64,000 nucleotides of DNA from Candidatus Mediterraneibacter pullicola (GTDB taxonomy: Bacteria > Bacillota > Clostridia > Lachnospirales > Lachnospiraceae), in NCBI GenBank assembly GCA_019117065.1, contig DXAK01000043.1, positions 124,671-188,670 of the forward strand, read 5' to 3'. Positions within the stretch are counted from its first letter, which is position 1, and each line of letters starts with the position of its first letter. Under the pieces are notes generated by a model. It worked only from the letters and a program-made list of their open reading frames with translations, was not told where the DNA came from and searched no databases. The translations under genes and the position numbers were made by a program. Shown here in pieces: positions 21,731 to 51,670 of the stretch.

Positions 21731-22714
21731 ATGGATACATTTTACACGCAGCTTAAGAGGGCGCTGGAAACAACAGAAAGGGATGTATGGATAGAGACTG
21801 TTTTAGAGGGGGAGCGCAGAGGAGAAAAACGTCTGCTAACCTCTGCGCCGGACGAGGAAAAAGACAGTCCCCGTGTGTTCCGTGAGCGCGTGGGGCGGTC
21901 TCCGAAGCTTATCATCTGCGGAGGGGGGCATGTGTCCATACCGGTAATTAAGATGGGAAAAATGCTAGGATTCGTGGTGACTGTGCTGGAGGATCGCCCG
22001 AAGTTCGCGGACAACGCAAGGGCGGCAGGGGCGGATACAGTCATATGTGAGCCGTTTTCCATAGAGCTTTCCAAGATTAGAGGAGATTCAGACACATGGT
22101 TTGTGATCGTGACGAGAGGGCACCGCTATGACACAGAATGTTTGGAGGAAATCCTGAAAAAGCAGTATGCCTATGTGGGAATGATGGGCAGCAGGCGCAG
22201 GGTGGCGATTGTAAAGGATCAGCTTGAGGAAAGAGGAATAGACAGAGCAGAGTTGGAGCGTGTCTATACGCCCATTGGCCTAAAGATCGGGGCGCAGACC
22301 CCGGAAGAGATTGCAGTATCGATCATGGCAGAAGTTATCCAAGTGAAGAACAGCCGGCAGAGGACGGGGGGATACTCGAAAGAGCTTCTGAATGCCCTGT
22401 TTGTGCCGGATGAAGGAGACGGAGCGGGTGATACACAGAAAAAAGTGCTTGCGACGATCATTTCCAGAAAAGGTTCTGCTCCCCGGGATGTGGGAACAAA
22501 GATGCTTATTAGGGAAGACGGGACGACAGTGGATACGATCGGAGGCGGATGTGTGGAGAGTGAGATCATACAGAAGGCCCTGCTCATGATGCGTACCGGG
22601 AAGGAACGGTATCAGATATGCAGAGTAGACATGACGTTAGAGGCTGCGGAAGATGAAGGAATGGTCTGCGGAGGCGTCGTGGAAGTGATGCTGGAATACA
22701 TTTCACGCCATTAA
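21731..22714 (+). CDS. XdhC/CoxI-family molybdenum hydroxylase maturation factor (atypical domain order)
   Basis: Rossmann-like XdhC_C segment (KLIICGGGHVSIPV...VTRGHRYD...YVGMMGSRRR) lies in the N-terminal two thirds. A complete XdhC_CoxI-type segment (VLATIISRKGSAPRDVGTKMLIREDGTTVDTIGGGCVE) lies at the C-terminus. Confidence 0.8.
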   Translation: MDTFYTQLKRALETTERDVWIETVLEGERRGEKRLLTSAPDEEKDSPRVFRERVGRSPKLIICGGGHVSIPVIKMGKMLGFVVTVLEDRPKFADNARAAGADTVICEPFSIELSKIRGDSDTWFVIVTRGHRYDTECLEEILKKQYAYVGMMGSRRRVAIVKDQLEERGIDRAELERVYTPIGLKIGAQTPEEIAVSIMAEVIQVKNSRQRTGGYSKELLNALFVPDEGDGAGDTQKKVLATIISRKGSAPRDVGTKMLIREDGTTVDTIGGGCVESEIIQKALLMMRTGKERYQICRVDMTLEAAEDEGMVCGGVVEVMLEYISRH

Positions 22715-22852
22715 AAGGTATTTCACAAACAAGTATTATTTTTGGTTGACATGGATTCACCCGGATGTTACTCTGGAAATAAAGAAAGACAGAAGCAGTC
22801 CGGCAAGGCGACTGACGCGCGGCTGGACCGGAACTGTGGAAGACAACATGTA

Positions 22853-22918
22853 TACTTATATAGGTTCATAATCGGTTGAACGTCTCTACCAGCCGCCGCA
22901 AACGGCTGACTATGAGTA
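22853..22918 (+). promoter_or_regulatory. Purine riboswitch aptamer, guanine/hypoxanthine/xanthine class (C at the specificity position)
   Basis: ACUUAUA-UAG-GUUCA-UAAUCGG-UUGAAC-GUCUCUACC-AGCCG-CCGCAAA-CGGCU-GAC-UAUGAGU. This gives P1/P2/P3, a GG in L2 and CC in L3 for the loop-loop contact, a J2/3 UCUCUAC core and GAC-UAUG (C74 equivalent). Confidence 0.8.
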
Positions 22919-22968
22919 TGCGGGATGGACAGTGTGCCATTGTGCGTATACAGAAAGGAGGCAGGCCG

Positions 22969-24252
22969 GTGAATGAACCTGTTTTTATTTTAAAAGGGAA
23001 TATTATATACAGTAAGAGTTTGACGGAACTAGCTGTCTGTGAGCACGGGTATCTCGTGTGCAGGGACGGCAGGACAGAGGGGGTATATCAGACTTTACCG
23101 TTTAAGCTGGGAGGTAATCCTATCCGTGATTATGGAGATTGTCTGATCATTCCAGGACTAGTGGATCTGCACATACACGCACCTCAGTATTCATTCCGGG
23201 GACTGGGGATGGATATGGAGTTGCTGGAATGGCTGGAGACGAATACCTTTCCGGAAGAAGCAAAATATAAGAATCAGGAATACGCAAAGAAGGCGTACAC
23301 GATTTTTTCAGATAATATGAGGAGAAGCGCTACAACCCGCGCTTGTATTTTCGGCACCGTCCACAGAGCGGCGACCCTGCTTCTGATGGATCTTATGGAG
23401 AAAACTGGACTAATCACTTATGTAGGCAAGGTGAATATGGATCGGAATACGCCAGAGTATCTGCGGGAAGAGACGCAGGCGTCGGCAGAAGAGACACGGG
23501 AGTGGATTAAAGATGTACTCCACAGAAAGTATAAGAATACCCGTCCCATCCTGACGCCGCGTTTCACACCGAGCTGTACAGATGAACTGATGGAAGAATT
23601 AAAGAAATTACAGATGCGTTACAGTCTTCCTCTCCATTCTCACCTTTCCGAGAACAGAAGCGAAGTCGAGTGGGTGAAAGAACTGTGCCCGTGGTCCGAG
23701 TTTTACGGTGACGCCTATGACAGGTTCGGACTTTTTGGGTCAGACTGTCCCACAGTCATGGCTCACTGTGTGTACAGTGATGACAGGGAGACCGCTCGGA
23801 TGAAAGAGAACGGCGTGTTTATCGCTCACTGCCCAGAGTCTAATATGAATGTATCGTCGGGGATTGCTCCTGTGAGAAAATTTTTAAGAGAAGAGCTGAA
23901 CGTAGGGCTGGGAAGCGATGTGGCGGCAGGGAGTACAGAGAATCTTTTCCGTGCTATGGCACATGCGGTTCAGGCGTCCAAATTAAGATGGAGGCTTACG
24001 GATGAAAGTCTTGCTCCGCTGGCGGTGGAAGAAGTGTTCTATATGGCGACAAAGGGCGGCGGAAGATTTTTCGGTCAGGTTGGAGGATTTGAACCGGGAT
24101 ATGAGTTTGACGCGCTGGTACTAGATGATTCCAGACTATCTCACCCTCAGGCTCTTGATGTCAGAAGCAGGCTGGAGCGGATGATTTATCTGGCGGATGA
24201 ACGAGAGATACAGGCAAAATATGTAAAGGGAATAGAGATTGATCTTTCATAA
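22969..24252 (+). CDS. guaD: Guanine deaminase (amidohydrolase superfamily)
   Basis: GTG 22969 with AAAGGAGG RBS 7 nt upstream. HxH motif (DLHIHAPQ), HLSEN and a C-terminal GSDV metal ligand region. Confidence 0.85.
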   Translation: MNEPVFILKGNIIYSKSLTELAVCEHGYLVCRDGRTEGVYQTLPFKLGGNPIRDYGDCLIIPGLVDLHIHAPQYSFRGLGMDMELLEWLETNTFPEEAKYKNQEYAKKAYTIFSDNMRRSATTRACIFGTVHRAATLLLMDLMEKTGLITYVGKVNMDRNTPEYLREETQASAEETREWIKDVLHRKYKNTRPILTPRFTPSCTDELMEELKKLQMRYSLPLHSHLSENRSEVEWVKELCPWSEFYGDAYDRFGLFGSDCPTVMAHCVYSDDRETARMKENGVFIAHCPESNMNVSSGIAPVRKFLREELNVGLGSDVAAGSTENLFRAMAHAVQASKLRWRLTDESLAPLAVEEVFYMATKGGGRFFGQVGGFEPGYEFDALVLDDSRLSHPQALDVRSRLERMIYLADEREIQAKYVKGIEIDLS

Positions 24253-24266: not shown

Positions 24267-26564
24267 ATGAAAGAAAAAGACCACATTATCGGACAGAGTG
24301 TGAAGAGAGTGGACGCTTTGGAGAAGGTAACCGGGCGCGCGAAATATGTGGATGACCTGTGTGACCGTAATGTCTATGTGGCGAAGGTGTTTCACGCAGA
24401 TATCGCTCACGGATATGTAAAATCCATAGACACGTCGGAGGCGGAGAAGATCCCGGGAGTGGTAAAGATCGTGACGTGCTTTGATGTGCCTAAAAATTAT
24501 TTCCCAACGGCAGGACATCCGTGGTCCACGGAACAGGGGCATCAGGATGTGTGCGACCGTCTCCTGCTGACAGATCATGTGAGGTTCTATGGAGACGATG
24601 TGGCGGCAGTAGTCGCAGAGAATGAAGTAGCGGCCGCTCAGGCAGTCCGTGCTATCAAGGCAGAGTACGAAGAACTTCCCTTTGTTCTGGATGTGCATAA
24701 GGCGATGGAGGACGGCGCTCCACGGATTCATGAGAACTATTCTCATAATATACTGGCGCACACTTCCATACGGAACGGGGATTATGAGGCCGCCATCAAA
24801 GAGCCGGGGCTTACTAAGGTCGAGGGCTGGTATGAGACGCCCACGGTACAGCACTGCCACATCGAGAACTTTATCTGCTACGCCTATATGGAGCAGGGCA
24901 GGATCGTTGTCGTATCCTCAACACAGATCCCGCATATATGCCGCAGGGTCGTAGGTCAGGCGCTGGGGATCCCGTGGGGGCAGGTGCGGATCATCAAGCC
25001 GTATATCGGCGGGGGATTCGGCAACAAGCAGGATGTCCTGTACGAGCCTCTGTGTGCGTATCTAAGTACGGTGACGGGAGGAAGACCGATAAAACTGGAT
25101 GTGTCGAGGGAAGAGACATTTGCCTCAACGAGAGTCCGGCACGCTATTCATTTCCATATTGTGTCTTATGTACGGCCAGACGGGACGTACTCGGCGCGCA
25201 AGTTTGAGAGTTTTTCCGATCAGGGGGCGTATGCGTCCCACGGGCACAGCATCGCAGCGAAAGGGATGGGATGTTTCCCGCAGCTCTATCCGTGCCCGAA
25301 TATCGAGGCAGATACATATACGGTTTTTACGAACAAATCTGTAGCGGGAGCTATGAGAGGCTACGGAATCCCACAGGCAATGTTCGCGATGGAGAGCCAT
25401 ACCGAGGATGTGGCGCGCGCCATGGGGATTTCACCGTATGAGTTCCGTATGAGGAACGTAATGCCCAAAGGATTTAAGGACGGATTTTCAAAAAATCTCA
25501 ATTACTATGACAGTTTTAGGGAGTGCATGGAGAAAGGACGCAAAGAATTTGATTACGACAGACGTATGGAGAAATATGCCTGTCAGGAGGGAGACATACG
25601 CCGGGGTGTAGGCATGTCAGTGTTCTGGTACAATACCGGAGTGTGGCCCATTTCTCTTGAGACTTCGGCGTGCCGTATGGTGCTCAATCAGGACGGCAGC
25701 ATCCAAGTTCAGGTAGGCGAGACGGAGATCGGGCAGGGAGCAGACACAGCGTTTGCCCAGATGGCGGCGGAGACGCTGGGGATTCCATTTGACATGGTGC
25801 ATGTGATCTCCACGCAGGATACGGACGTCACGCCATTTGGGACAGGGGCGTATGCGTCAAGGCAGACTTATATGGCAGGATTCTCCATACGACAGACAGG
25901 AGAACTCTTGCGCGAGAAAATATTGGAGACTGCCCGTGACCTAACAAGGCAGATGAAAGAAAATTTGGACATTGTAAATGGAAACGTTGTCAGGATTTCT
26001 GACGGGGAAGTGCTGATGAGTTTAGGGGAACTGGCAACAGAAAAGCTGTACAGCCTGACGGATAACGGGCATTTGACGGCGGAGAGCAGCTATCAGATCA
26101 AAAACAACGCCTACTCTTTCGGGTGCACCTTTGTCGAGGTGGAGGTGGATATTCCCGGTTGCCGCGCGCAGGTGACAGATATGTTAAATGTTCATGACTG
26201 CGGAAGGCTCATCAACCCTGCATTGGCGGAAGCGCAGGTGCACGGTGGTATGAGCATGGGCATTGGTTATGCGCTCTCAGAAAAGCTCCTTTTTGATGAG
26301 AAGACCGGAAAACCGCTCAACAATAATCTTCTGGATTATAAGCTGTCTACTTTTATGGATCATCCAGATCTCAAGGCGGCTTTTATTGAAAATGATGAGC
26401 CTACCAGTGCCTATGGGACAAAGGCGCTGGGGGAACCGCCTACATGTTCGCCTGCTCCGGCAATCCGCAACGCCATCCTTCAGGCGACGGGCGTGGCGCT
26501 AAACGAGATACCGATGCGGCCGCATCTGTTGTTTGAAGAGTTTAAGAAAGCGGAGCTGATCTGA
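24267..26564 (+). CDS. xdhA: Xanthine dehydrogenase family, molybdopterin-binding large subunit
   Basis: Aldehyde oxidase/XDH a/b-hammerhead and Moco-binding domains (GGGFGNK, GQGADTAFAQ). Followed by FAD and 2Fe-2S subunit genes. Confidence 0.9.
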   Translation: MKEKDHIIGQSVKRVDALEKVTGRAKYVDDLCDRNVYVAKVFHADIAHGYVKSIDTSEAEKIPGVVKIVTCFDVPKNYFPTAGHPWSTEQGHQDVCDRLLLTDHVRFYGDDVAAVVAENEVAAAQAVRAIKAEYEELPFVLDVHKAMEDGAPRIHENYSHNILAHTSIRNGDYEAAIKEPGLTKVEGWYETPTVQHCHIENFICYAYMEQGRIVVVSSTQIPHICRRVVGQALGIPWGQVRIIKPYIGGGFGNKQDVLYEPLCAYLSTVTGGRPIKLDVSREETFASTRVRHAIHFHIVSYVRPDGTYSARKFESFSDQGAYASHGHSIAAKGMGCFPQLYPCPNIEADTYTVFTNKSVAGAMRGYGIPQAMFAMESHTEDVARAMGISPYEFRMRNVMPKGFKDGFSKNLNYYDSFRECMEKGRKEFDYDRRMEKYACQEGDIRRGVGMSVFWYNTGVWPISLETSACRMVLNQDGSIQVQVGETEIGQGADTAFAQMAAETLGIPFDMVHVISTQDTDVTPFGTGAYASRQTYMAGFSIRQTGELLREKILETARDLTRQMKENLDIVNGNVVRISDGEVLMSLGELATEKLYSLTDNGHLTAESSYQIKNNAYSFGCTFVEVEVDIPGCRAQVTDMLNVHDCGRLINPALAEAQVHGGMSMGIGYALSEKLLFDEKTGKPLNNNLLDYKLSTFMDHPDLKAAFIENDEPTSAYGTKALGEPPTCSPAPAIRNAILQATGVALNEIPMRPHLLFEEFKKAELI

Positions 26565-26580
26565 GAAAGGGGGCAGACAT

Positions 26581-27474
26581 ATGTATGATATAAAAGCACT
26601 GTATGAGGCACAGAGTGTGTCTCACGCCGTGGAATTACTTCTGGAGCATCCGCACGCCCAGATTATTGCGGGCGGAAGCGATGTCCTTGTGCAGATGAGA
26701 GAGGGAAAACTGGCCGGCGCGGAGCTGGTGAGCATCTATGGATTGGATGAACTGCGGGGTGTGACGCTGGAGGGGGATGGAACGCTAAGAATCGGATCTC
26801 TGACCAGCTTCTCCCAAATTACCAGAGATCCTTTGATCCAGAAATACATCAATGTATTGGGCGAAGCAGTAGATATGGTGGGAGGACCCCAGATCCGAAA
26901 CATTGGGACGATTGGTGGAAACACATGCAACGGTGTCACATCAGCGGATTCGGCTTCTACCCTGTTTGCATGGGACGCAGTGATCGAGCTGACCGGGCCG
27001 GGCGGGGTGAGGAAGATTCCCATTGGAGATTTCTATATCAGGGCAGGAAAGGTAGACCTGCGTCCGGCAGAGATCCAGACAAGTATCCTTATACGAAAGG
27101 AATCTTATGAGGGATATGTGGGACATTATATTAAGTACGCTATGAGAAATGCGATGGATATCGCGACCCTTGGCTGTTCCGTGAATGTGAAACTTTCGGA
27201 AGATAAAAGTACCTTTGCTGATGTGCGAATCGCCTACGGGGTGGCAGGACCCGTCCCCATGCGTGCTATTCACGCGGAGGAGGCGGGCAGAGGACTTCCC
27301 GTGTCCGGACAGAGCATAGAACAGATTGGAAATACGGTTCTTGAAGATGTGACGCCACGCAACAGCTGGAGGGCGAGTAAGGCGTTCCGGGAGCACATCT
27401 CAAAAGTGCTCTGTAAGCGCTCGCTTGCTGAGGCGGTCACAAGGGCAGAAAATCTCGGGAAGGGGGCGTCGTGA
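26581..27474 (+). CDS. xdhB: Xanthine dehydrogenase FAD-binding subunit (CO dehydrogenase flavoprotein-like)
   Basis: FAD_binding_5 motif IIAGGSDVLVQM and a CO-DH flavoprotein C-terminal domain. Confidence 0.88.
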   Translation: MYDIKALYEAQSVSHAVELLLEHPHAQIIAGGSDVLVQMREGKLAGAELVSIYGLDELRGVTLEGDGTLRIGSLTSFSQITRDPLIQKYINVLGEAVDMVGGPQIRNIGTIGGNTCNGVTSADSASTLFAWDAVIELTGPGGVRKIPIGDFYIRAGKVDLRPAEIQTSILIRKESYEGYVGHYIKYAMRNAMDIATLGCSVNVKLSEDKSTFADVRIAYGVAGPVPMRAIHAEEAGRGLPVSGQSIEQIGNTVLEDVTPRNSWRASKAFREHISKVLCKRSLAEAVTRAENLGKGAS

Positions 27475-27992
27475 TGAGCGGGGAAACGAATTTTAAGAAG
27501 CAGTACAAATTGGTACGGTGCCGCATCAACGGTGTGGAGAGGGAGGTTATGGTAGATGCGAGGGCCTCCCTGACTGATATGCTGCGAAACGATTACTCCC
27601 TTACCAGTGTGAAGAAAGGCTGTGAGGTGGGAGAGTGCGGCGCTTGTAATGTCATCATTGATGGAGAGTGTTTTAACTCCTGCATTTATCTGGCGGTATG
27701 GGCGGACGGCAAAGACATTCGTACGCTGGAGGGGCTGATGGGCCCGAATGGAGAGCTGTCGGATATCCAGCAGGCGTTTATCGACGAGGCGGCAGTGCAG
27801 TGCGGATTCTGCACACCGGGTGTGATTATGAGTGCGGTGGAGATATTGGAAAACGCAGAGAAAACCGGGAGAGAATATACACGGGAGGAATTAAGAAAAC
27901 TCCTGTCAGGACATCTGTGCAGATGCACGGGGTATGAGAACATATTGAATGCCGTGGAAAAGACGATGAAGAAGAGACTCAGGGAGTCTTGA
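27474..27992 (+). CDS. xdhC: Xanthine dehydrogenase [2Fe-2S] subunit
   Basis: CEVGECGACNV plus CGFCTPG / CRCTGY cluster motifs. GTGATGA overlap with the upstream stop (a GTG at 27471 is an alternative start). Confidence 0.9.
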   Translation: MSGETNFKKQYKLVRCRINGVEREVMVDARASLTDMLRNDYSLTSVKKGCEVGECGACNVIIDGECFNSCIYLAVWADGKDIRTLEGLMGPNGELSDIQQAFIDEAAVQCGFCTPGVIMSAVEILENAEKTGREYTREELRKLLSGHLCRCTGYENILNAVEKTMKKRLRES

Positions 27993-28175: not shown

Positions 28176-28595
28176 TTATTGCTTAATCTTTTTCAGAAGG
28201 GCTTCCTGAAGAACCTGTGAAAAGTTGATATTCTTCTCAAGTGCGGCTTTGTTGAGCCACGCAGGAATGGAAAGCGTCTTTTTTACCGATTTTTCAAAAT
28301 GTGTTTTTGCATATTCAGCTACGTCAACCGCAACCATATTGATAAAGGCGTCGGAAAGGTCTGTTTCCAGTTCTTCGGCAATGTGGCTGATATCAATATC
28401 TGTCAAAGCGGAAGGAGCGGGAATTTCTTGGTTTTCCTGCTGACCTGTATAGAGGTATCCTGCCAGACAGTCAACTGCCGCCTCTAAAGCCTCGTTCAGA
28501 GTATCTCCGCAGGTTGCGAGCCAGTTAAGGTCGGGGAATATAACGGAATAACCTGTTTTTTCTTTGAAAAAACATGCGGGATATGCAGATAACAT
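28176..28595 (-). CDS. hicB: HicB-family antitoxin
   Basis: Start refined to ATG 28595 (AAGGAGG, 8-nt spacer). HicB N-terminal fold pattern (YPACFFKEKTGYSVIFPDLNWLATCGDTLNEAL) and a C-terminal RHH/HTH-like tail. Confidence 0.8.
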   Translation of the reverse strand: MLSAYPACFFKEKTGYSVIFPDLNWLATCGDTLNEALEAAVDCLAGYLYTGQQENQEIPAPSALTDIDISHIAEELETDLSDAFINMVAVDVAEYAKTHFEKSVKKTLSIPAWLNKAALEKNINFSQVLQEALLKKIKQ

Positions 28596-28618: not shown

Positions 28619-28810
28619 TCATTTTTTAAGTCCGGCTTGCCTGCGGATAGAATTTTCTGTGCCTTTGGGCAACTCTTTTGTATGGAACGGTATGGTAACT
28701 TTTCCGGGCTTATGCGGATGTATATAGTGACGGTGAGAACCGATCTGACATTTAAAGATCCATCCTTCTTTTAGTATTATTTTTTCCATTTCGACAGGTT
28801 TTATCGGCAA
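28619..28810 (-). CDS. hicA: HicA-family mRNA interferase toxin
   Basis: 63 aa, with GSHRHYIHPHKPGKVTIPFHTKELPKGT typical of HicA/YcfA. TTG start with AAAGGAG 8 nt upstream. Lies 23 nt upstream of hicB. Confidence 0.8.
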   Translation of the reverse strand: MPIKPVEMEKIILKEGWIFKCQIGSHRHYIHPHKPGKVTIPFHTKELPKGTENSIRRQAGLKK

Positions 28811-29003: not shown

Positions 29004-29049
29004 AAAAGTAGAAAAACATCCCCGGCACCACATTTTCACGTGATGCCGG
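29004..29049. terminator. Bidirectional hairpin terminator downstream of arcC
   Basis: AAAAACATCCCCGGCACCAC-ATTTTCAC-GTGATGCCGGGAATGTTTTT. Confidence 0.75.
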
Positions 29050-29128
29050 GAATGTTTTTATGGGAGCAAGCCCCGTCTTTATTAGGGGGTTCAATTTATC
29101 ATGGCGCACAATCATAAGTGATGTACAC

Positions 29129-30090: not shown

Positions 30091-30471
30091 TTATTCTTTC
30101 ACAGCGGCGATTGCCTCTACCTCACAGAGAACTCCCTTCGGAAGAGCTTTTACCGCAACGCAGGAACGGGCTGGCTTGCCTGTAAAATATTTTGCATAGA
30201 TTTCATTGAATGCTGCAAAATCACTCATATCTGCAAGGAAGCAGGTTGTCTTTATGACATCTGTAAATTCTGCGCCTTGGCTCTCAAGAAGAGCTTTGAT
30301 GTTTTGCATTACCTGCTCTGTCTGTTCTTCGATAGTCGTGCCCACTACCTCGCCTGTTTCTGGGGAGAGCGGGATGGAACCGGAAAAGAATGCGATTCCG
30401 TTGAAAACGATTCCCTGTGAGTACGGTCCGATAGCTGCCGGTGCGTTTTTAGTGTCAATATATTTTAACAT
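30091..30471 (-). CDS. ridA: RidA family enamine/imine deaminase
   Basis: 126 aa YjgF/YER057c/UK114 signature (PAAIGPYSQG ... PARSCVAVKALPKGVLCEVE). Confidence 0.92.
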   Translation of the reverse strand: MLKYIDTKNAPAAIGPYSQGIVFNGIAFFSGSIPLSPETGEVVGTTIEEQTEQVMQNIKALLESQGAEFTDVIKTTCFLADMSDFAAFNEIYAKYFTGKPARSCVAVKALPKGVLCEVEAIAAVKE

Positions 30472-34523: not shown

Positions 34524-34546
34524 TTCTTTTGAGTTATTTTTCCGGA

Positions 34547-35322: not shown

Positions 35323-35425
35323 TTTTCACCTGCCTTTTTCAGCGTAAAGCCAGAGGGAAAATGTAAATGTGATGTGTGTCTCTAACCCCATCATAGCATA
35401 AAAAAAGATGGTGTCAACACTTTTT

Positions 35426-42902: not shown

Positions 42903-42937
42903 TGATATGGAAATATAAAGAAGGAAGGTTGTGCGGG

Positions 42938-43682: not shown

Positions 43683-45083
43683 ATGAAGATATTGATAAAA
43701 GGCGCGGGAGATCTGGCGACAGGTATCGCTTCCCGGCTTTATGGAGCAGGGCATCAGATCCTTATGACAGAGATTGAAACACCTCTTACGGTAAGAAGGA
43801 CAGTGGCACTGTCACGGGCTGTCTACGAGAAAACGGCAAAGGTAGAAGGAATGGAGGCGTTTTTTGCGTACTTAAAAGAGGAAGCAGAACATATCCTTGA
43901 GCGCGGAGATATCGCTGTGATGGCGGATCCGGAAGCCTCCTGCCGAGGCTGGTATATGCCAGACGTGATAATCGACGCGATCCTTGCGAAAGAGAACCTT
44001 GGCACAGCCATTACGGACGCTCCCTTTGTAATCGGTGTGGGACCGGGATTTACAGCAGGAGAGGATTGTCACTGCGTCATCGAGACAAAGAGAGGACATA
44101 CGTTGGGAAATATCATCTGGAGAGGAAGTGCAATTCCCAATACGGGAGTACCCGGCAATGTGGGAGGCTATACTGTGGAGAGGCTCATACGGGCATCTGC
44201 AGACGGAAATGTGGAGCCGAAAGTACGGATCGGTGATTTGGTGGAAAAGGGTCAGGTTGTGGCAGTAACAGGCGGACAGCCGGTGTACGCACAGATGTCT
44301 GGAATTGTCAGAGGAATGCTTCAAAGCGGGGTCCCTGTAAAAGCGGGGTTAAAGATCGGTGACATTGATGCCCGGGCAGAAGTCTCTCATTGCTATACGA
44401 TATCGGATAAAGCGCGCGCTGTCGGCGGCGGAGTGCTGGAAGCCACAACAGGATTTGAGAGGATGAGCGGGCGGTACGCCATCGTTGTGCTTGCCGCGGG
44501 AGCGGGAACTCGGTTTGGAGGCAGCAAATTACACGCTTTGGTGGATGGTGTGCCTATGTACGAGAGGATGCTGCAAAAAGTTCAGGTATTTTCCGCATTT
44601 CCAGCTTTTGTTGTAACTGGGGATGAGAAGATTGCAGATGAGGCGAAAAAAAGAAGTATCACTCCAGTGTGGAACGACAGGCCGGAGGAGGGCATCAGCC
44701 TGTCTCTCAGGCTTGGGCTGGAAGCGGCGGTACAAAGCTACAGATGTGAGGAGCCTACTCCCGGCACATGGGAAAGGGGACTCAAAGGTGTGTTCTTTTC
44801 CGTATGTGACCAGCCGTGGCTTACCGTCTCTACCATGCAGCAGATCTTCCGCACGGCGTCCTTGCATCCTGGCAGCATCGTTTGTGCAGGGCGTGGGGGC
44901 AGAGGAGGGAACCCAGTGCTGTGGGACTGTAGGTATTTTTCGGAACTGCTGGAGCTGTCCGGAGATGTGGGAGGCAGGCAGCTCATGAATAAATACAGAG
45001 AGAACGTGCGGATTGAAGAAGCAGATGAGAGGGAGTTAAGCGATGTTGACCGGCAGGAAGATATGAGGCCGGTGCAGGTGTAG
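43683..45083 (+). CDS. yqeB: YqeB-family protein fused to MocA-like molybdenum cofactor cytidylyltransferase
   Basis: N-terminal MKILIKGAGDLATGIASRL... YqeB/EF2563-type Rossmann region. The C-terminal about 190 aa start YAIVVLAAGAGTRFGGSKL, the MobA/MocA NTP-transferase signature. Start refined to ATG 43683. Confidence 0.8.
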   Translation: MKILIKGAGDLATGIASRLYGAGHQILMTEIETPLTVRRTVALSRAVYEKTAKVEGMEAFFAYLKEEAEHILERGDIAVMADPEASCRGWYMPDVIIDAILAKENLGTAITDAPFVIGVGPGFTAGEDCHCVIETKRGHTLGNIIWRGSAIPNTGVPGNVGGYTVERLIRASADGNVEPKVRIGDLVEKGQVVAVTGGQPVYAQMSGIVRGMLQSGVPVKAGLKIGDIDARAEVSHCYTISDKARAVGGGVLEATTGFERMSGRYAIVVLAAGAGTRFGGSKLHALVDGVPMYERMLQKVQVFSAFPAFVVTGDEKIADEAKKRSITPVWNDRPEEGISLSLRLGLEAAVQSYRCEEPTPGTWERGLKGVFFSVCDQPWLTVSTMQQIFRTASLHPGSIVCAGRGGRGGNPVLWDCRYFSELLELSGDVGGRQLMNKYRENVRIEEADERELSDVDRQEDMRPVQV

Positions 45084-45139: not shown

Positions 45140-45682
45140 ATGGCTCAGAAACGCAAGAAAAAAGTAGCTGTCGTACAGTGTTTAGGAGGAAGCTGTACGC
45201 AGCCGGAGCTTTCGCGGGAATCCTACGGGTCTGACTGCGCACAGGCGGTTGCAGAACACCCGGGGGGAATCTTAAAATGCAGGTGGGGATGTATCGGTCT
45301 TGGAAGCTGCGTATCCGCATGTAGGATGGACGCGGTACATATCGGAAGCCGGGGTGCGGCTGAGACAGACTGGGAGAAATGTATCGGCTGCGGGCTGTGT
45401 GTAAAAGCCTGTCCCATGCACTTGATCCGCCTGACAGAACCAGAGTACAATATTTACCTTGCTTGTGTGAATGAGGAGACGGGTGCAGAGACGAGAAACG
45501 AGTGTCAGTCGGGGTGTATCGGTTGCAGTATCTGTGAGAAGGTATGTCCCATGCAGGCGATCCGTATGGAAAACTATCATGCGGTGATCGATGAAGAGAA
45601 ATGTATTGCCTGCGGGATGTGCGCGGTCAAGTGCCCCCGGGGCGTGATACGGGATCAGAACGGGATTCTGACAGTTCAGTAA
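45140..45682 (+). CDS. RnfB-like polyferredoxin (four Cys-cluster motifs)
   Basis: CRWGCIGLGSCVSAC plus three CxxCxxCxxxCP motifs (CIGCGLCVKACP, CIGCSICEKVCP, CIACGMCAVKCP). Start refined to ATG 45140 (AAAGGAGAGGGA RBS). Confidence 0.8.
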   Translation: MAQKRKKKVAVVQCLGGSCTQPELSRESYGSDCAQAVAEHPGGILKCRWGCIGLGSCVSACRMDAVHIGSRGAAETDWEKCIGCGLCVKACPMHLIRLTEPEYNIYLACVNEETGAETRNECQSGCIGCSICEKVCPMQAIRMENYHAVIDEEKCIACGMCAVKCPRGVIRDQNGILTVQ

Positions 45683-45701: not shown

Positions 45702-48296
45702 ATGAAAGAGAGCTTTTGTTTTACGGTAAACGGAGTAGAACGCGTGACAGATGTGGATAAGCCGCTCCTTCGCTATCTGCGGGATGATCTCCATCTGCAT
45801 TCCGTCAAGGACGGCTGCAGCGAGGGAGCCTGCGGTACATGTACCATCGTGGTGGACGGAAAAGCGGTCAAATCCTGTGTCCTGACGACGAGGCGGGCGG
45901 TCGGGAAAAATATCCTGACCACGGAGGGACTCAGCGAAAAAGAGAAGGAGGCTTTCGTCTATGCTTTCGGGTCAAAGGGATCTGTCCAGTGCGGATTCTG
46001 CATCCCCGGCATGGTGATGTCAGGGAAAGCCCTGATTGATCGGGTGCCGGACCCCACCGAGGAAGAGATTAAAGTGGCGTTAAAAGGAAATATCTGCCGC
46101 TGTACAGGATATAAAAAGATCATCGAGGGGATCCAGCTTGCGGCGGCGATTCTCAGGGGCGACGAGCAGATTGATGAGGAGCTGGAGAAAGGTGACAGCT
46201 ACGGAGTGGGAGAGAGAGCTTTCCGTCTGGACGTCCGTGAAAAGGTGTTAGGATACGGAGAGTACCCGGACGACATGGAGGTCGAGGGAATGGTCTATGC
46301 CTCGGCGGTGCGATCAAAATATCCTCGCGCCCGGATTCTTGATATTCATACGGAGAAAGCGGAGGCGCTCCCGGGCGTTCTGGCAGTGCTGACCGCGGAC
46401 GATGTGCCGAATAATAAGGTCGGGCATTTGCAACAGGATTGGGATGTGATGATCGCGAAAGGCGCTGTTACGCGCTATGTGGGTGACGCTATATGCCTTG
46501 TGGTTGCGGAGACAAAGGAGATCCTTGAGAGGGCGAAGAAACTGGTGCGTATAGATTATGAGGAATTAAAGCCTGTGACTTCGGTTAAAGAAGCAATGCA
46601 GGAGGACGCGCCTAGGGTTCATTCCAAAGGGAATCTATGTCAGAGCAGGCATGTCACAAGAGGGAATGCCAAGAGCGCGCTGGCAAATTCAAAATATGTG
46701 GTGACGCAGACTTACAGCACTCCATTTACGGAGCACGCATTCCTTGAGCCGGAGTGCGCGGTGGCAATGCCATACAAGGACGGAGTAAAAGTCTACTCTA
46801 CGGATCAGGGCGTGTATGACACACGCCATGAGATCTCGATTATGTTCGGGTGGGATCCGGAGAAAGTTGTGGTTGAGAATAAGCTGGTGGGCGGTGGATT
46901 CGGAGGAAAAGAAGACGTCTCAGTCCAGCATATTGCGGCACTGGCGGCTGTGAAGGTGCAACGGCCGGTAAAGGTGACATTTTCTAGGCAGGAGTCCATC
47001 AACTTTCATCCGAAACGGCACGCCATGGAGGGAACCTTCACCCTCGGGTGTGACGAGAACGGAATCTTCACCGGACTGGACTGTGAGATCTATTTTGATA
47101 CCGGAGCATACGCTTCACTGTGCGGACCGGTTCTGGAGAGGGCGTGTACTCATTCTGTAGGACCTTACTGTTATCAGAACACGGACATCCGCGGATTCGG
47201 ATATTATACAAACAATCCGCCAGCGGGGGCGTTCCGCGGTTTCGGCGTGTGTCAGAGTGAATTTGCCCTTGAATCCAATATCAATCTCCTTGCGGAAAAG
47301 GTAGGCATTTCTCCGTGGGAGATCCGTTACCGCAATGCCATTGAACCGGGGAAGGTGCTTCCCAATGGACAGATCGCAGACTGTTCCACCGCACTTAAGG
47401 AGACGCTTCTGGCAGTGAAGGACGTATACGAGAGCAATCCGGGCAGGGCGGGGATTGCCTGTGCCATGAAAAACGCCGGAGTAGGCGTGGGACTTCCCGA
47501 CAAGGGAAGAGCCAAGATCAAGGTTCATGACGGTAAGGTGGAATTATACAGCGCGGCATCTGATATCGGTCAGGGATGCGCCACGGTATTTGTGCAGATG
47601 GTTGCAGAGACGACTGGGCTTGGAAAGGATAAGATACGCAACATGGGAGCAAACTCCGAGCTGGCGCCGGATTCCGGTACCACTTCCGGTTCCCGGCAGA
47701 CGCTCATCACCGGGGAAGCTGTGCGCATGGCGTCCGCCGATCTGGTTAAAGCGCTTGAAAAAGCCGGAGGAGATCTGGGGAAATTGGAAGGCTGGGAGAC
47801 ATTTGCTGAATTTTTTGATCCCACGGATAAGCTGGGGGCAGATGTTCCGAATCCCAAGAGCCATGTGGCATACGGGTTTGCTACACATGTGGTTGTCTTG
47901 GACGACGATGGAAGGGTGAAAGAAGTATATGCGGCGCACGATTCTGGGAAAGTTGTCAATCCCATTGCCATACAGGGACAGATCGAGGGCGGTGTGCTCA
48001 TGGGTCTGGGATATGCCCTGACAGAAGATTTCCCGTTGAAAGATGGGATTCCGCAGGCAAGATACGGGACTTTGGGGCTGATGAGATCTACTCAGATACC
48101 GGATATCCACGCCATCTATGTGGAGAAGGAAGAACTGCTTCCCTTTGCATACGGGGCAAAAGGCATCGGTGAAATCGCTACTATTCCCACTGCCCCGGCA
48201 GCTCAGGGCGCGTATTACGCGATGGATCATGTGCTTAGGACAAAGCTTCCGATGGAGAACACCTATTATTCAAAAAAGCAGAAAGCCGTAAAATAA
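45702..48296 (+). CDS. xdhD: XdhD-type molybdenum hydroxylase with fused N-terminal [2Fe-2S] domains
   Basis: CSEGACGTCTI, CGFCIPG and CRCTGY motifs in the first 150 aa, followed by XDH-family hammerhead and Moco domains (GGGFGGKED). Confidence 0.88.
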   Translation: MKESFCFTVNGVERVTDVDKPLLRYLRDDLHLHSVKDGCSEGACGTCTIVVDGKAVKSCVLTTRRAVGKNILTTEGLSEKEKEAFVYAFGSKGSVQCGFCIPGMVMSGKALIDRVPDPTEEEIKVALKGNICRCTGYKKIIEGIQLAAAILRGDEQIDEELEKGDSYGVGERAFRLDVREKVLGYGEYPDDMEVEGMVYASAVRSKYPRARILDIHTEKAEALPGVLAVLTADDVPNNKVGHLQQDWDVMIAKGAVTRYVGDAICLVVAETKEILERAKKLVRIDYEELKPVTSVKEAMQEDAPRVHSKGNLCQSRHVTRGNAKSALANSKYVVTQTYSTPFTEHAFLEPECAVAMPYKDGVKVYSTDQGVYDTRHEISIMFGWDPEKVVVENKLVGGGFGGKEDVSVQHIAALAAVKVQRPVKVTFSRQESINFHPKRHAMEGTFTLGCDENGIFTGLDCEIYFDTGAYASLCGPVLERACTHSVGPYCYQNTDIRGFGYYTNNPPAGAFRGFGVCQSEFALESNINLLAEKVGISPWEIRYRNAIEPGKVLPNGQIADCSTALKETLLAVKDVYESNPGRAGIACAMKNAGVGVGLPDKGRAKIKVHDGKVELYSAASDIGQGCATVFVQMVAETTGLGKDKIRNMGANSELAPDSGTTSGSRQTLITGEAVRMASADLVKALEKAGGDLGKLEGWETFAEFFDPTDKLGADVPNPKSHVAYGFATHVVVLDDDGRVKEVYAAHDSGKVVNPIAIQGQIEGGVLMGLGYALTEDFPLKDGIPQARYGTLGLMRSTQIPDIHAIYVEKEELLPFAYGAKGIGEIATIPTAPAAQGAYYAMDHVLRTKLPMENTYYSKKQKAVK

Positions 48297-48411: not shown

Positions 48412-48795
48412 ATGGAGAAGCAGTCAGAGGAAAGAAAGAATGTTCAGAAGTGTGAGGCTTCTTCTATCCACCCCCGCCTGAAAGTGCAGATCACAGGCAC
48501 AGAGCCGTTCTTTGGACCGGGAGTGCGGACGCTCCTTCTGCATATCTGTGAGGAGGGTTCCGTGCGGGAGGCGTGTGAAAAGATGGGACTGTCATACAGC
48601 AAAGGCAGGAAACTTCTGGAACGTGCAGAGCGGGAATTGGGGTATACAGTTGTTGAACGCAGCCCCGGCGGAAAGAACGGGGGAAGCGCACAGGTCAGTG
48701 AAGCGGGAATGCAGTTTCTGGAAAAATACGAGAGGCTTGAAAAGGAACTTTCCAAGGCTGCGGAGGAAAAGTTCTGGGAAATATTTGGAAATTAG
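48412..48795 (+). CDS. ModE N-terminal-domain-like winged-HTH regulator (no Mop/TOBE domain)
   Basis: 127 aa. FFGPGVRTLLLHICEEGSVREACEKMGLSYSKGRKLLERAE resembles the ModE/LysR-type HTH_1. It ends before any molybdate-binding domain. Confidence 0.7.
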   Translation: MEKQSEERKNVQKCEASSIHPRLKVQITGTEPFFGPGVRTLLLHICEEGSVREACEKMGLSYSKGRKLLERAERELGYTVVERSPGGKNGGSAQVSEAGMQFLEKYERLEKELSKAAEEKFWEIFGN

Positions 48796-48895: not shown

Positions 48896-49786
48896 ATGAA
48901 GAAAAGGTTATTGGCAGCAGTACTGGCAGGAATTATGGTATTTTCCATGGCAGGATGCTCGGGAACAAATTCGGATTCTGCTTCGGATAACGGGACGGAT
49001 ACTCAGGCAGGAGATACAGATTCCGATGAGGAACAGACAGAGATCCAAGTGTTTATCGCGGCGAGCTTAAACACGGTTATGACAGATCTTGCGGAGAGGT
49101 ATAATGAGGATCACCCAGATGTAAAGATCACTTATAACGCAGACAGCTCGGGAACACTTCTTACACAGATACAGGAGGGATATGAATGTGATATCTTCTT
49201 CTCAGCGGCTCAGAAGCAGATGGATGATCTGGAGGCGGACGGGCTCATGGTGGAAGGCACGAGAGCTAATGTAGTCAACAATCAGGTTGTCGTCATGACC
49301 CTTAAAGACAGCGGGACAGCAGTGACAGGACTTGAGGATATCGGAAAGGCAGAGAGTATTGCTTTGGCGGGCGGAAGCGTTCCGGTAGGGAGGTATACAA
49401 GACAGGCCATGGTAAATCTGGGAATGCTCCCGGAGGCAGATGACGTGGCGGCGATTACAACCGAAGAAGTGTCTGAAGCACTGGGCGGCGTGGAGATCAG
49501 TGAGCAGGATAACGTAAGCAAAGTGCTTACAGCAGTTGTGGAGGGATCTTGCGAGGTGGGGACGACCTACTATTCCGATACATACGGATATGAGGATGAT
49601 CTGGATATCCTCCAGACAGTAAGCTATGACCTGACAGGGAACGTGATCTATCCTATCGCCCGCGTTATAAATGAGGAAGCGGACGATGCGCAGACAGCGG
49701 CGGCGGAAGATTTCTTGAAGTTTATCCTTTCGGATGAGGCAAAAGAAGTGTTTGACTCCTATTATTTTGACACAAATGTAGAATAG
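48896..49786 (+). CDS. modA: Molybdate ABC transporter substrate-binding lipoprotein
   Basis: Start refined to ATG 48896 (GAGGAGG RBS). Lipobox SMAGC and ModA-type periplasmic binding fold. Confidence 0.88.
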   Translation: MKKRLLAAVLAGIMVFSMAGCSGTNSDSASDNGTDTQAGDTDSDEEQTEIQVFIAASLNTVMTDLAERYNEDHPDVKITYNADSSGTLLTQIQEGYECDIFFSAAQKQMDDLEADGLMVEGTRANVVNNQVVVMTLKDSGTAVTGLEDIGKAESIALAGGSVPVGRYTRQAMVNLGMLPEADDVAAITTEEVSEALGGVEISEQDNVSKVLTAVVEGSCEVGTTYYSDTYGYEDDLDILQTVSYDLTGNVIYPIARVINEEADDAQTAAAEDFLKFILSDEAKEVFDSYYFDTNVE

Positions 49787-49888
49787 AGATAAAATAAATG
49801 TAGGCAGCAGGCGGCGGACAAGAGCCATACTTTTGTCCGTCGTTTTTTGCGAAGGAAGATTCGGAAGAAAACTCCGGGAGGACGGTTT

Positions 49889-50593
49889 ATGGAAGCGATC
49901 ATGGAGATTTTAAAAGGGCTGGATTGGAGCCCTCTGTTCATATCTATCAAGACGGGGGTTGTGGCGACTGTTATCTCTTTTTTTCTTGGGATATTCGCAG
50001 CGCGCAAGGTGGTGAAGGCTTCGCCGGGCAAGAAGGCGGTCATTGACGGTATTCTTACTCTGCCAATGGTGCTACCGCCGACAGTGGCGGGATTCTTCTT
50101 GCTTCTTCTGTTCAGTAGGCGCAGGCCTTTCGGAGAGTTTCTCTTTGACGAGTTCGGGTTCAAAGTCGTGCAGACATGGCTCGGGTGCGTCATTGCGGCG
50201 ACAGTAATAGCCTTCCCTCTAATGTACCGCAATGCCCGCGCGGCAATGGAGCAGATTGATACGAATCTGGTATATGCGGGCAGGACGCTTGGCATGTCGG
50301 ATACAAAAATTTTTTGGAAAATTATCATACCAACCGCGGGACCGGGGATCGCTTCCGGAACGATCCTTACGTTTGCCAGAGCGCTGGGCGAGTACGGTGC
50401 GACGTCAATGCTGGCGGGAAATATACCCGGCAAGACAGGAACCATTTCCCAGAAAATTGCTATGGTCATACAGGATGGCGATTATATGACGGCGGGGATT
50501 TGGGTGGCTGTAGTCATGATCATCGCATTTATCGTTATTTTCCTGATGAACATCATCTCAGGGAAAAAGATGAAAAACATCAGGAGGTGGTAA
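49889..50593 (+). CDS. modB: Molybdate ABC transporter permease
   Basis: Start refined to ATG 49889. EAA-like loop ARALGEYGATSMLAGNIPGKT. Confidence 0.88.
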   Translation: MEAIMEILKGLDWSPLFISIKTGVVATVISFFLGIFAARKVVKASPGKKAVIDGILTLPMVLPPTVAGFFLLLLFSRRRPFGEFLFDEFGFKVVQTWLGCVIAATVIAFPLMYRNARAAMEQIDTNLVYAGRTLGMSDTKIFWKIIIPTAGPGIASGTILTFARALGEYGATSMLAGNIPGKTGTISQKIAMVIQDGDYMTAGIWVAVVMIIAFIVIFLMNIISGKKMKNIRRW

Positions 50594-50596
50594 CTC

Positions 50597-51670
50597 ATGG
50601 CGATCAATGTTCAAGTCAGAAAGAAGCTGGACAGTTTTCTTTTGGATATCAGTTTTGAGAGCAAGTCAAAGCGGATCGGTATTCTGGGAGCTTCTGGCTG
50701 TGGGAAAAGCATGACGCTTAAGAGTATTGCGGGTATTGAAACTCCGGATGAGGGTAGGATTGAGGTGGAGGGCCGGACGCTGTTTGACCGGGAAAGGAAA
50801 GTCAACTTAAAGCCGCAAAAGAGAAACGTGGGATATTTGTTTCAGAACTACGCTTTGTTTCCGACCATGAATGTGGAGAAAAATATTGCGGCAGGACTAA
50901 AAGGCAGCAGACAGGGTAGTGAGACACGTGTGCGGCAGATGATAGAGAAATTCCGGCTTCAGGGGCTGGAGAAACGCCTTCCCGGGCAATTGTCCGGTGG
51001 CCAGCAGCAAAGGGTAGCTCTAGCGCGCATCATGGCCTATGAGCCGGATGTGATTCTGCTTGACGAACCATTTTCAGCTCTGGATATGTACTTAAAGGAT
51101 CAGCTTCAGCAAGAACTGATTCAGATGCTTGAAGATTATGAGGGTACGGTCATTATGGTATCCCATAACAGAGATGAGGTGTACCGTTTCAGCCAGGATC
51201 TGCTCATTATTGATCAGGGAAGGATCGCTGCTGCTGGAGAGACAAAGGAGATCTTTAGAAATCCAGTCAGCAGGGAGGCGGCCCGTCTTACCGGATGCAA
51301 AAATTTTTCCCGGGTAAGGCAGATCGACGCTCATACATTGGAAGTGCAGGATTGGGGCATTACCTTGTACATCCGGGGAGAGATCCCGGATTACACGGAA
51401 TGGATCGGATACCGTGCTCATGATTTTATTCCTGTATGGGGAAAACGCGGAGAAAATATGATTAAAGCAGAAATTGACAGCAGCGCGACTCTGCCATTTG
51501 AACGGAATTATTATCTTAGAGCGGAGAAAGAGAATGTGCTTGATACAGACGGATCAGGAGGAACAAAGATCTGCTGGTTTGTGCAGAGAGAAAAAATGGA
51601 TGTACTGGAAGAGAGGGGAATTCCTGATTATCTAGAAATAAAAGAAGATAAAATCTTATTTTTAAGATAG
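50597..51670 (+). CDS. modC: Molybdate ABC transporter ATP-binding protein
   Basis: Walker A GASGCGKS, signature LSGGQQQRVALAR, Walker B ILLDEPFSALD, plus a C-terminal regulatory-type domain. Confidence 0.85.
   Translation: MAINVQVRKKLDSFLLDISFESKSKRIGILGASGCGKSMTLKSIAGIETPDEGRIEVEGRTLFDRERKVNLKPQKRNVGYLFQNYALFPTMNVEKNIAAGLKGSRQGSETRVRQMIEKFRLQGLEKRLPGQLSGGQQQRVALARIMAYEPDVILLDEPFSALDMYLKDQLQQELIQMLEDYEGTVIMVSHNRDEVYRFSQDLLIIDQGRIAAAGETKEIFRNPVSREAARLTGCKNFSRVRQIDAHTLEVQDWGITLYIRGEIPDYTEWIGYRAHDFIPVWGKRGENMIKAEIDSSATLPFERNYYLRAEKENVLDTDGSGGTKICWFVQREKMDVLEERGIPDYLEIKEDKILFLR

Follow-up and report, generated by a model that had tools for sequence, protein, structure and literature searches.

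The pathway by which uric acid is degraded anaerobically was solved by Liu et al. 2025 (10.1101/2025.04.24.650524) and Li et al. 2025 (10.1101/2025.05.19.654654), and more than 2,000 metagenome-assembled genomes (MAGs) are recorded as carrying such clusters. Urate is converted to 2,8-dioxopurine by 6-dehydroxylation, catalysed by a selenium-dependent molybdenum enzyme that is XdhAC in Clostridium sporogenes and XdhD-YgfM in Escherichia coli; 2,8-dioxopurine is reduced by YgfK with NAD(P)H, and SsnA and then HyuA open the rings to give 2,3-diureidopropionate (10.1101/2025.04.24.650524; 10.1101/2025.05.19.654654). YgeW and carbamate kinase then yield ATP, YgeY generates 2,3-diaminopropionate, and YgeX converts this to pyruvate; in C. 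sporogenes, a separate xanthine dehydrogenase (XDH) supplies urate from hypoxanthine and xanthine, and both this enzyme and the 2,8-dioxopurine dehydrogenase (DOPDH) are dependent on selenium, molybdenum and SelD (10.1101/2025.04.24.650524; 10.1101/2025.05.19.654654). This work concerns a contiguous block of 24 genes from Candidatus Mediterraneibacter pullicola, defined by an open reading frame (ORF) listing and profile searches at positions 21731-51670 of a 64,000-nucleotide stretch of contig DXAK01000043.1, the whole of which is referred to as the window. By analogy with characterised orthologues, the locus is very probably an anaerobic reductive uric-acid/2,8-dioxopurine cluster, to which a purine feeder module is joined, together with genes for late cofactor steps and metal supply.

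This reading draws on protein family scores, BLASTP comparison with E. coli, the biochemistry and genetics of orthologues, synteny in 80 genomes and urate induction in Lacrimispora saccharolytica, as well as on a riboswitch with an intact guanine pocket, the enrichment of a palindrome, and a promoter and terminators fitting four transcription units. Profile scores were compared with NCBIfam curated cut-offs (given after each score below), domains were identified with Pfam and RNAs with Rfam, the E. coli K-12 ygeW-guaD region provided the BLASTP reference set, and the synteny sample consisted of ygfK-centred loci from 80 other species of several phyla.

An earlier note, made from the sequence alone, had read the region as a selenium-dependent molybdenum hydroxylase and anaerobic purine-urate catabolism cluster, and the profile scores and orthologue biochemistry bear this out. 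Its bounds were exact, since the XdhC-family ORF starts at 21731 and the modC-like ORF ends at 51670. Its family assignments also survived a check with hidden Markov models, with the products matching the named families and mostly exceeding the cut-offs, including the marker families of selenium-dependent molybdenum hydroxylase systems (SsnA, 667 bits; YgfK, 1369; YgeY, 654; YqeB, 331; YqeC, 232). The proposed family-by-family match to E. coli stood in so far as the best BLASTP match of every shared gene was its namesake (27-68% identity), and failed for the label xdhD. The note had listed neither the purine riboswitch nor the YheO-like regulator, hicAB or the tandem repeat described below. 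The block is genuine, complete and not attributable to chance, although it is an unremarkable representative of a cluster family already described. An assembly collection indexes the YgeW sequence in 336 blocks, and the six matches listed, all from ENA assemblies, carry the same locus; in the accessible part of the Liu 2025 supplementary tables, neither Ca. M. pullicola nor its genus occurs.

The core pathway and its molybdenum enzyme

The first block of the cluster, on the plus strand, encodes an XdhC-family protein and a GuaD-like enzyme followed by XdhA, XdhB and XdhC. The second plus-strand block runs through ssnA, an NCS2 permease gene, ygfK, hyuA, yqeC, yqeB-mocA, a polyferredoxin gene, the gene of an 864-aa enzyme, a ModE-like gene and modABC, while the minus-strand genes encode carbamate kinase, RidA, YgeW, YgeY, YgeX and a YheO-family regulator. 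Unrelated housekeeping genes flank the cluster.

Urate would either be imported by the NCS2 nucleobase permease (37004-38443, +; TIGR00801, 305 bits against 292) or made internally. Urate and xanthine are the permease's candidate substrates; it scored 347 bits with the pbuX model, below the cut-off of 414, and is 28-29% identical to XanQ and UacT. Entry into the pathway would then be through a fused 2Fe-2S and molybdopterin enzyme of 864 aa (45702-48296, +), which scored 1288 bits (cut-off 830) with TIGR03311 over its full length, residues 7-858 aligning with model positions 3-848, and which has no FAD domain. This enzyme had been labelled xdhD in the earlier note, yet it does not belong to the XdhD family, reaching 228 bits with TIGR03313 against a cut-off of 1102; its BLASTP identity is 27% with XdhD and 30% with XdhA, and comparison with the E. 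coli region revealed no homologue of a YgfM-type FAD subunit in the cluster. A TIGR03311-type enzyme is the molybdenum enzyme beside ssnA-ygfK in most of the 80 loci, including that of Collinsella aerofaciens (69% identity), and C. sporogenes XdhAC consists of Fe-S and MoCo domains and makes no use of NAD(P)H (10.1101/2025.04.24.650524). By this analogy, the 864-aa protein is assigned as an XdhAC-like, urate-reducing DOPDH, a selenium-dependent and FAD-less enzyme that would convert urate to 2,8-dioxopurine. Residue E606 of XdhD was also considered as a signature of this conversion, and was set aside as uninformative, being situated in an XdhD-only insertion that neither XdhA nor the TIGR03311 family has. 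Among solved structures the closest is the Desulfovibrio aldehyde oxidoreductase, with no DOPDH structure represented.

The electrons for this reduction would probably be delivered by the product of the preceding gene, an RnfB-like soluble polyferredoxin with several 4Fe-4S motifs (45140-45682, +), which ends 20 bp before the gene of the 864-aa enzyme. The Pfam Fer4 matches confirm the polyferredoxin that the earlier note had listed, and a PRK07118-type match covers model positions 91-269 of 293. Of 65 loci with the TIGR03311-type gene, 41 have a homologue next to it, comprising all 28 of the Collinsella type and 13 of the 37 others; outside the Collinsella type, it is upstream in Mediterraneibacter/Fimousia, one Flavonifractor, Olsenella and the sampled loci L044, L053 and L058, and downstream in Blautia and Subdoligranulum. 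The physiological electron donor of the FAD-less enzyme was stated to be unknown by Liu et al. (10.1101/2025.04.24.650524), and reduced ferredoxin was suggested by Li et al. (10.1101/2025.05.19.654654). The polyferredoxin is a specific candidate for this partner and donor.

From 2,8-dioxopurine onward, the roles of the window's proteins follow those of their orthologues. The genes ssnA, permease and ygfK lie in one operon, in that order, and ssnA and ygfK are adjacent in every related locus of the 80-locus set that has both. YgfK (38461-41454, +; TIGR03315, 1369 bits against 835), 41% identical to E. coli YgfK over its full length by BLASTP, corresponds to the Fe-S flavoenzyme NAD(P)H:2,8-dioxopurine oxidoreductase (DOPOR), and would reduce 2,8-dioxopurine with NAD(P)H. 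The amidohydrolase SsnA (35596-36930, +; NF005540, 667 bits against 444; TIGR03314, 604 against 455.5), a pathway marker used by Li et al. (10.1101/2025.05.19.654654) and called here as a 444-aa product, would open the pyrimidine ring of the reduced 2,8-dioxopurine. The hydantoin ring would be opened by the D-hydantoinase HyuA (41535-42902, +; TIGR02033, 514 bits against 393; 36% identical to E. coli HyuA), converting ureidomethyl-hydantoin to 2,3-diureidopropionate.

The remaining steps would be carried out by products of the minus-strand operon. One ureido group of 2,3-diureidopropionate would be phosphorolysed by the knotted carbamoyltransferase YgeW (30529-31722, -; TIGR03316, 801 bits against 500; 68% identical to its E. 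coli namesake), and the carbamoyl phosphate released would be used to make ATP by the carbamate kinase ArcC/YqeA (29129-30073, -; TIGR00746, 382 bits against 358; 65% identical to E. coli YqeA). The M20 hydrolase YgeY (31776-33086, -; TIGR03526, 654 bits against 321.5; 61% identity, with a 436-aa gene call in identical contigs) would remove the second ureido group to leave 2,3-diaminopropionate, which the diaminopropionate ammonia-lyase YgeX/DpaL (33151-34356, -; TIGR03528, 632 bits against 532; 47% identity, 401-aa gene call) would convert to pyruvate and ammonia. Hence HyuA, YgeW, carbamate kinase, YgeY and YgeX, the genes that denote cluster membership, are all present above their cut-offs. 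The enamine/imine deaminase RidA (30091-30471, -; TIGR00004, 164 bits against 106), the position of which is conserved among Mediterraneibacter relatives, may clear the 2-aminoacrylate enamine made by YgeX.

The earlier note had proposed a four-step reductive route resembling pyrimidine degradation, of which three steps match orthologue biochemistry. Reduction of a ring by YgfK, hydrolytic opening by HyuA and SsnA (of two rings), and a YgeW, YgeY, YgeX and carbamate kinase branch that yields ATP via carbamoyl phosphate and pyruvate via YgeX have each been shown for orthologues. The entry step was wrong, as the committed intermediate is not reached by interconverting urate, xanthine and hypoxanthine, but is 2,8-dioxopurine (isoxanthine), formed by 6-dehydroxylation of urate. 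The analogy itself was apt, for Li et al. draw the same parallel, treating PydA/PydB reductive pyrimidine degradation as the direct chemical analogue (10.1101/2025.05.19.654654). The description of the substrates of YgfK, SsnA, HyuA, YgeY and YgeW as largely unassigned is outdated, the biochemistry having been worked out between 2023 and 2025. As the enzymology has already been published, no new chemistry emerges from the locus.

Feeder, cofactor and regulatory elements

Upstream of the core genes, a feeder module would supply urate from other purines. Guanine would be deaminated by a GuaD-like guanine deaminase of 427 aa (22969-24252, +), for which TIGR02967 is by far the best match (360 bits against 375), and which is 34% identical to E. 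coli GuaD; the guanine riboswitch upstream fits this candidate assignment. Its start is a GTG at 22969 with AGGAGG 7 nt upstream, in agreement with a 427-aa gene call in identical metagenome contigs. The three-subunit (molybdenum, FAD and 2Fe-2S) xanthine dehydrogenase encoded by xdhA-xdhB-xdhC (24267-27992, +) exceeds the cut-offs of NF043082 (XdhA, 1244 bits against 780), NF043083 (XdhB, 438 against 310) and NF043084 (XdhC Fe-S subunit, 251 against 217), and shares 43-49% identity with E. coli XdhABC. By analogy, it would feed the pathway by converting hypoxanthine and xanthine to urate.

The molybdenum and selenium cofactor would be matured by three proteins. An XdhC-family molybdenum cofactor (Moco) insertion and maturation protein (21731-22714, +; NF045664, 275 bits against 350) has its Pfam domains in reversed order, the Rossmann-fold XdhC_C (residues 60-202) preceding XdhC_CoxI (236-293), and by BLASTP aligns in permuted fashion with residues 95-253 and 19-100 of E. 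coli YqeB, in the N-terminal half of that protein. The C-terminal selenium-dependent Moco maturation domain of YqeB is itself fused to a MocA-like cytidylyltransferase (43683-45083, +; TIGR03309, 331 bits against 220; TIGR03310, 99.5 bits against 186; Pfam NTP_transf_3), and is 49% identical to YqeB residues 258-522. With the selenium-cofactor maturation protein YqeC (42902-43642, +, starting at 42902 or 42938; TIGR03172, 232 bits against 73; Pfam YqeC), YqeB is a marker of a putative selenium-cofactor trait, and both score above their cut-offs. Downstream of the 864-aa enzyme are a ModE-like protein of 127 aa (48412-48795, +; TIGR00637, 56 bits against 98.5; Pfam HTH_1), modA (48896-49786, +; TIGR01256, 110 bits against 62.5), modB (49889-50593, +; TIGR02141, 201 bits against 183) and a modC-like ATPase gene (50597-51670, +; ModC model, 195 bits against 285), and ModABC is predicted to import molybdate through an ABC uptake system. 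The earlier note's ModE-like regulator is borne out by the N-terminal helix-turn-helix (HTH), though its score is below the cut-off and neither NCBIfam nor Pfam detected a C-terminal molybdate-binding (Mop) domain.

Promoter and terminator scans fit four transcription units: riboswitch-guaD-xdhABC, yheO to arcC, ssnA to the molybdenum enzyme, and modE-modABC. Just downstream of arcC, an intrinsic terminator with a 20-bp stem and T-run (29012-29059, -) ends the yheO-arcC operon, and another with a 9-bp GC-rich stem and T-run (51932-51952, +) closes the cluster after the modE-modABC unit; no strong plus-strand terminator-like site (at least 9 bp and GC-rich) was found between ssnA and the molybdenum enzyme.

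The two central units diverge from a shared regulatory region. The YheO-family transcription regulator (34675-35322, -; Pfam PAS_6, 1.9e-35; HTH_22, 1.4e-20) is encoded by the first gene of the minus-strand operon yheO-ygeX-ygeY-ygeW-ridA-arcC, and yheO is divergent from ssnA in 25 related loci of Bacillota, Atopobium/Olsenella and Brachyspira. Its promoter (35390-35417, -; TTGACA, 16-nt spacer, TG-TATGAT), with 11 of 12 matches and an extended -10, is conserved among relatives. Between the divergent promoters, 20 bp apart, are two 15-bp palindromes, CTAAAAATTTTTTAG and CTAAAAATTATTTAG (35426-35440 and 35446-35460), both fitting the motif CTAAAAA-N-TTTTTAG; the window has no further match to it, even with two mismatches allowed, for instance before guaD, the XdhC-like gene or modE. 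With up to one mismatch allowed, 15 of the 25 divergent yheO-ssnA spacers contain the palindrome. Its density there is 2.9 sites per kb, compared with 0.004 outside the spacers, an enrichment of approximately 700-fold. From this distribution, the palindromes are a candidate operator of the YheO-like regulator. Directly downstream of them is the ssnA promoter (35466-35500, +; TTGCAT, 17-nt spacer, TGg-TATTCT), which appears conserved across genera in spacers aligned by eye, and the placement of which suggests activation rather than simple repression.

The YheO-like regulator is likely to be a urate-responsive switch for the two central operons, which it would control from the CTAAAAA-N-TTTTTAG palindromes. 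A literature search on YheO and uric acid returned nothing relevant. In L. saccharolytica, urate induces the YheO orthologue Closa_1034 22-fold, together with its neighbours, and the ModE-family gene of the same cluster 5.8-fold. By analogy, this induction is the best available evidence that the yheO and ssnA operons may respond to urate.

The guaD-xdhABC unit is instead preceded by a purine riboswitch aptamer of guanine-I type (22836-22932, +; RF00167, 53 bits against a gathering threshold of 37), located in its leader. The residues U22, U47, U51 and C74 are kept, J2-3 is GUCUCUAC and J3-1 is AC, and the junctions contain no insertions. Since pocket and junctions agree with the criteria for variant classes of guanine-family riboswitches (PMC9295807), it is assigned to the classical guanine class, rather than to xanthine-II or guanine-II. 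In the unconstrained minimum free energy fold, P2/J2-3 is paired with the Shine-Dalgarno (SD) sequence GGAGG and the GTG start (z = -3.45), whereas a fold constrained to form the aptamer is 9.6 kcal/mol less favourable and releases the long helix masking the SD. Because the alternative fold would make the SD and start codon inaccessible, we infer from these models that guanine may turn on translation of guaD-xdhABC, and an ON switch would be sensible for a catabolic operon.

The riboswitch was the only hit in an Rfam scan of 21000-52500 at E <= 1, which detected no ssnA motif, Moco riboswitch or NMT1 motif. In an Oscillospiraceae MAG (L025, 6081-6177, +), a purine riboswitch of 52 bits is situated between hyuA and a TIGR03311-type gene, implying that purine riboswitches control different parts of the cluster in different lineages. 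The ssnA RNA motif (RF03031) was observed directly upstream of ssnA-ygfK in six loci of Oscillospiraceae-type relatives (L028, 8455-8503; L030, 8228-8276; L040, 8495-8542; L048, 8579-8626; L050, 8450-8497; L054, 8428-8476). Rfam lists it only as a cis-regulatory element, and a literature search on the motif yielded nothing relevant; as the substrate of SsnA is now known, urate, 2,8-dioxopurine or its reduced form are candidate ligands.

Two insertions interrupt the cluster. Between xdhC and arcC is a hicAB toxin-antitoxin pair (hicA, 28619-28810, -; hicB, 28176-28595, -), recognised through Pfam HicB_lk_antitox and a HicA_toxin gene call in identical contigs, which has its own promoter-like site (28858-28830, 11 of 12 matches) and is present in all same-species contigs examined; it is an insertion outside the pathway. 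Between yheO and ygeX are two tandem copies of a GC-rich structured repeat of 130-150 nt (34397-34676; Tandem Repeats Finder period 150, 95% matches), which are 94-95% identical and have a fold z-score of -8.45. The repeat is confined to same-species contigs and a partial, 77%-identical copy in L059, and the yheO-ygeX gap of relatives is 22-110 bp. A riboswitch was considered and rejected, given the lack of an Rfam match, this near species-specific distribution and the short gap in relatives. The element is probably an insertion within the operon resembling repetitive extragenic palindromes (REP) or miniature inverted-repeat transposable elements (MITE), which the strong fold fits.

Elsewhere in the window, an M-box (magnesium) riboswitch (13956-14122, -; RF00380, 88 bits) lies upstream of the magnesium transporter gene mgtE (12441-13772, -), an ordinary pairing. 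Downstream of the cluster, a 439-aa ORF (53628-54947, -) beside an SsuA-like binding protein gene has no NCBIfam or Pfam match. A gene for a Cas3-like HD nuclease/helicase (61751-63898, +; Pfam Cas3-like_C_2, DEAD and HD) is found at the window end, and a CRISPR-Cas locus may extend past it.

Weighing the explanations

Several considerations weigh against assigning the locus to urate reduction. The functional evidence is orthology throughout, transferred by analogy to an uncultured host. The XdhC-type maturation factor, GuaD, the MocA domain, the ModE-like protein and ModC each have the right best match with a score below its cut-off. Profile searches detected neither selD nor any early Moco-biosynthesis gene in the 64-kb window, the absence of selD counting against the reading; with these genes lacking and a ModE-like protein that has an HTH only, the earlier note's description of the locus as self-contained was overstated. 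The polyferredoxin adjoins the enzyme gene in only 13 of the 37 loci that are not of the Collinsella type. A weak hairpin over the SD persists in the aptamer-forced fold, and the ON direction of the riboswitch is a folding prediction. The DOPDH assignment follows from domain make-up, synteny and elimination, with XdhAC matched through its published description; the 864-aa enzyme is without the XdhD-specific insertion carrying E606, and a protein of 100% identity that NCBI lists from a Ca. M. pullicola MAG bears the name of its NCBIfam family, "selenium-dependent xanthine dehydrogenase". This name, also applied by PGAP, the missing insertion and the near-equal distance of the enzyme from XdhD and XdhA would suit an alternative in which it is a selenium-dependent xanthine dehydrogenase or purine hydroxylase of the kind classically found in purinolytic clostridia, with urate reduced by XdhABC or not at all. 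That is improbable: the window already has an XdhABC that passes equivalog cut-offs at 43-49% identity to its E. coli counterpart; the cluster enzyme of C. sporogenes, XdhAC, is the DOPDH, with urate coming from a separate XDH; and in Collinsella, Flavonifractor and Enterocloster loci, ssnA-ygfK is accompanied by no molybdenum enzyme gene other than the TIGR03311-type one.

Nor do the legacy family names make a convincing case for selenium metabolism or selenate reduction as the cluster's purpose. NCBIfam describes YgfK as a "putative selenate reductase subunit", SsnA as a "selenium metabolism protein" and YgeY as a "selenium metabolism-linked hydrolase", but YgfK activity neither required selenate nor rose with it (10.1101/2025.04.24.650524), and the selenium link is the cofactor of the molybdenum hydroxylases. 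With the idea already refuted for orthologues, we regard it as extremely improbable. The same holds for the classical purinolytic Clostridium route through xanthine, ring-opened imidazoles and formiminoglycine, which is remote despite the selenium-linked, xanthine-dehydrogenase-like enzyme and amidohydrolases that it would share with this locus, as YgeX sets the end product by converting diaminopropionate to pyruvate, and not to formiminoglycine. A less distant, though still unlikely, alternative is that the region is not one unit, but a juxtaposition of independent modules: riboswitch-guaD-xdhABC, hicAB, two YheO-controlled operons and modE-modABC. The regulatory devices do differ, with a riboswitch before guaD and palindromes only between yheO and ssnA; hicAB, with its own promoter, separates xdhC from arcC; and among relatives, many different combinations of xdhABC, mod genes and a TIGR03311-type gene accompany ssnA-ygfK. 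However, the modules are metabolically consecutive, leading from guanine through xanthine and urate to the pathway, with molybdenum supplied for two molybdenum enzymes, and unrelated lineages also have them close to ssnA-ygfK (xdhABC in L018, L025, L053 and L058; modABC in L010, L011, L014, L042 and L048). This alternative is in any case about regulation, and is compatible with the functional explanation of the locus as a reductive urate cluster.

Within that functional explanation, three roles are absent from the pathway papers (Liu 2025; Li 2025), namely that the YheO regulator acts at the paired palindromes as master regulator of the urate pathway, that the guanine riboswitch is a translational ON switch, and that the polyferredoxin is the DOPDH donor. 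Their conjunction is put forward tentatively, as we would not quite back all three holding together; if true, they would show how the pathway is regulated and supplied with electrons in Gram-positive gut anaerobes. The pathway is relevant to host urate balance and gout, to nitrogen recycling in birds and insects, and to probiotic engineering. In this chicken-gut commensal, the locus represents a compact natural design that places together the feeder, the core pathway, the maturation of the molybdenum and selenium cofactor, and molybdate uptake. It provides leads on the gene regulator in Bacillota, on the coupling of purine sensing through a riboswitch, and on the reductant of the FAD-less urate-reducing enzyme.

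Comparison with described pathways

The window and the E. coli K-12 ygeW-guaD region share XdhABC, YgeW, YgeX, YgeY, HyuA, carbamate kinase, YqeB, YqeC, MocA, YgfK, SsnA, an NCS2 permease and GuaD, each pair being reciprocal best matches, and their routes are alike from 2,8-dioxopurine onward, with the chemistry assigned by orthology here. They diverge at the reduction of urate, which in E. coli involves the NADH-linked XdhD-YgfM (a TIGR03313 protein and an FAD subunit), whereas the window has the FAD-less TIGR03311 enzyme and a polyferredoxin. Regulation differs likewise, the sigma-54 regulator YgeV and a Crp site in E. coli corresponding to the YheO-family regulator and riboswitch. YqeB, a single protein in E. 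coli, is split in the window between the XdhC-like gene and the YqeB-MocA fusion. Relative to E. coli, the window gains ridA and modE-modABC, and is without ygfM, ygfS/ygfT and ygeV.

With C. sporogenes, the window shares eight core gene products, a separate XDH feeding urate and the YqeB/YqeC markers of the selenium-cofactor trait, and the domain make-up of the 864-aa protein is that described for XdhAC, a comparison made by description. The carbamate kinase gene is elsewhere on the chromosome in C. sporogenes, but within the operon in the window, while the C. sporogenes papers do not cover the riboswitch, YheO regulator, polyferredoxin or mod genes.

The gene order of L. saccharolytica WM1 (Closa_1029-1039) is as in the window, with permease, carbamate kinase, (ygeW), ygeY, ygeX and yheO on one strand, and ssnA, ygfK, hyuA, a yqeC-like gene and the ModE-family gene on the other; all of the Closa_1029-1039 genes are urate-induced, by 6- to 25-fold. 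Most genes shared with the sampled Lacrimispora locus, L014, are 57-86% identical (yqeC and modE, 33-36%), and that locus has the same palindrome. Unlike the window, L. saccharolytica is without ridA, the 150-nt repeat and hicAB, and its permease is on the other operon, while L014 has no TIGR03311-type gene within 10 kb.

In the C. difficile variant, UacX replaces YgfK and UacY replaces YgeW/YqeA, whereas the window keeps YgfK and YgeW/carbamate kinase, implying that ATP would be conserved and NAD(P)H used for the second reduction. The two are alike in their pathway logic and FAD-less enzyme, the XdhD-type protein of C. difficile being thought to use reduced ferredoxin (10.1101/2025.05.19.654654). 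A wider likeness is with the PydA/PydB/PydC route of pyrimidine degradation, in which, as in the urate pathway, a uracil-like ring is reduced, an amidohydrolase opens it, and the ureido group is removed. However, unlike the Pyd route, the urate pathway must first convert its purine to 2,8-dioxopurine with a molybdenum and selenium enzyme, and it then processes two rings and two ureido groups, one of which is used to make ATP.

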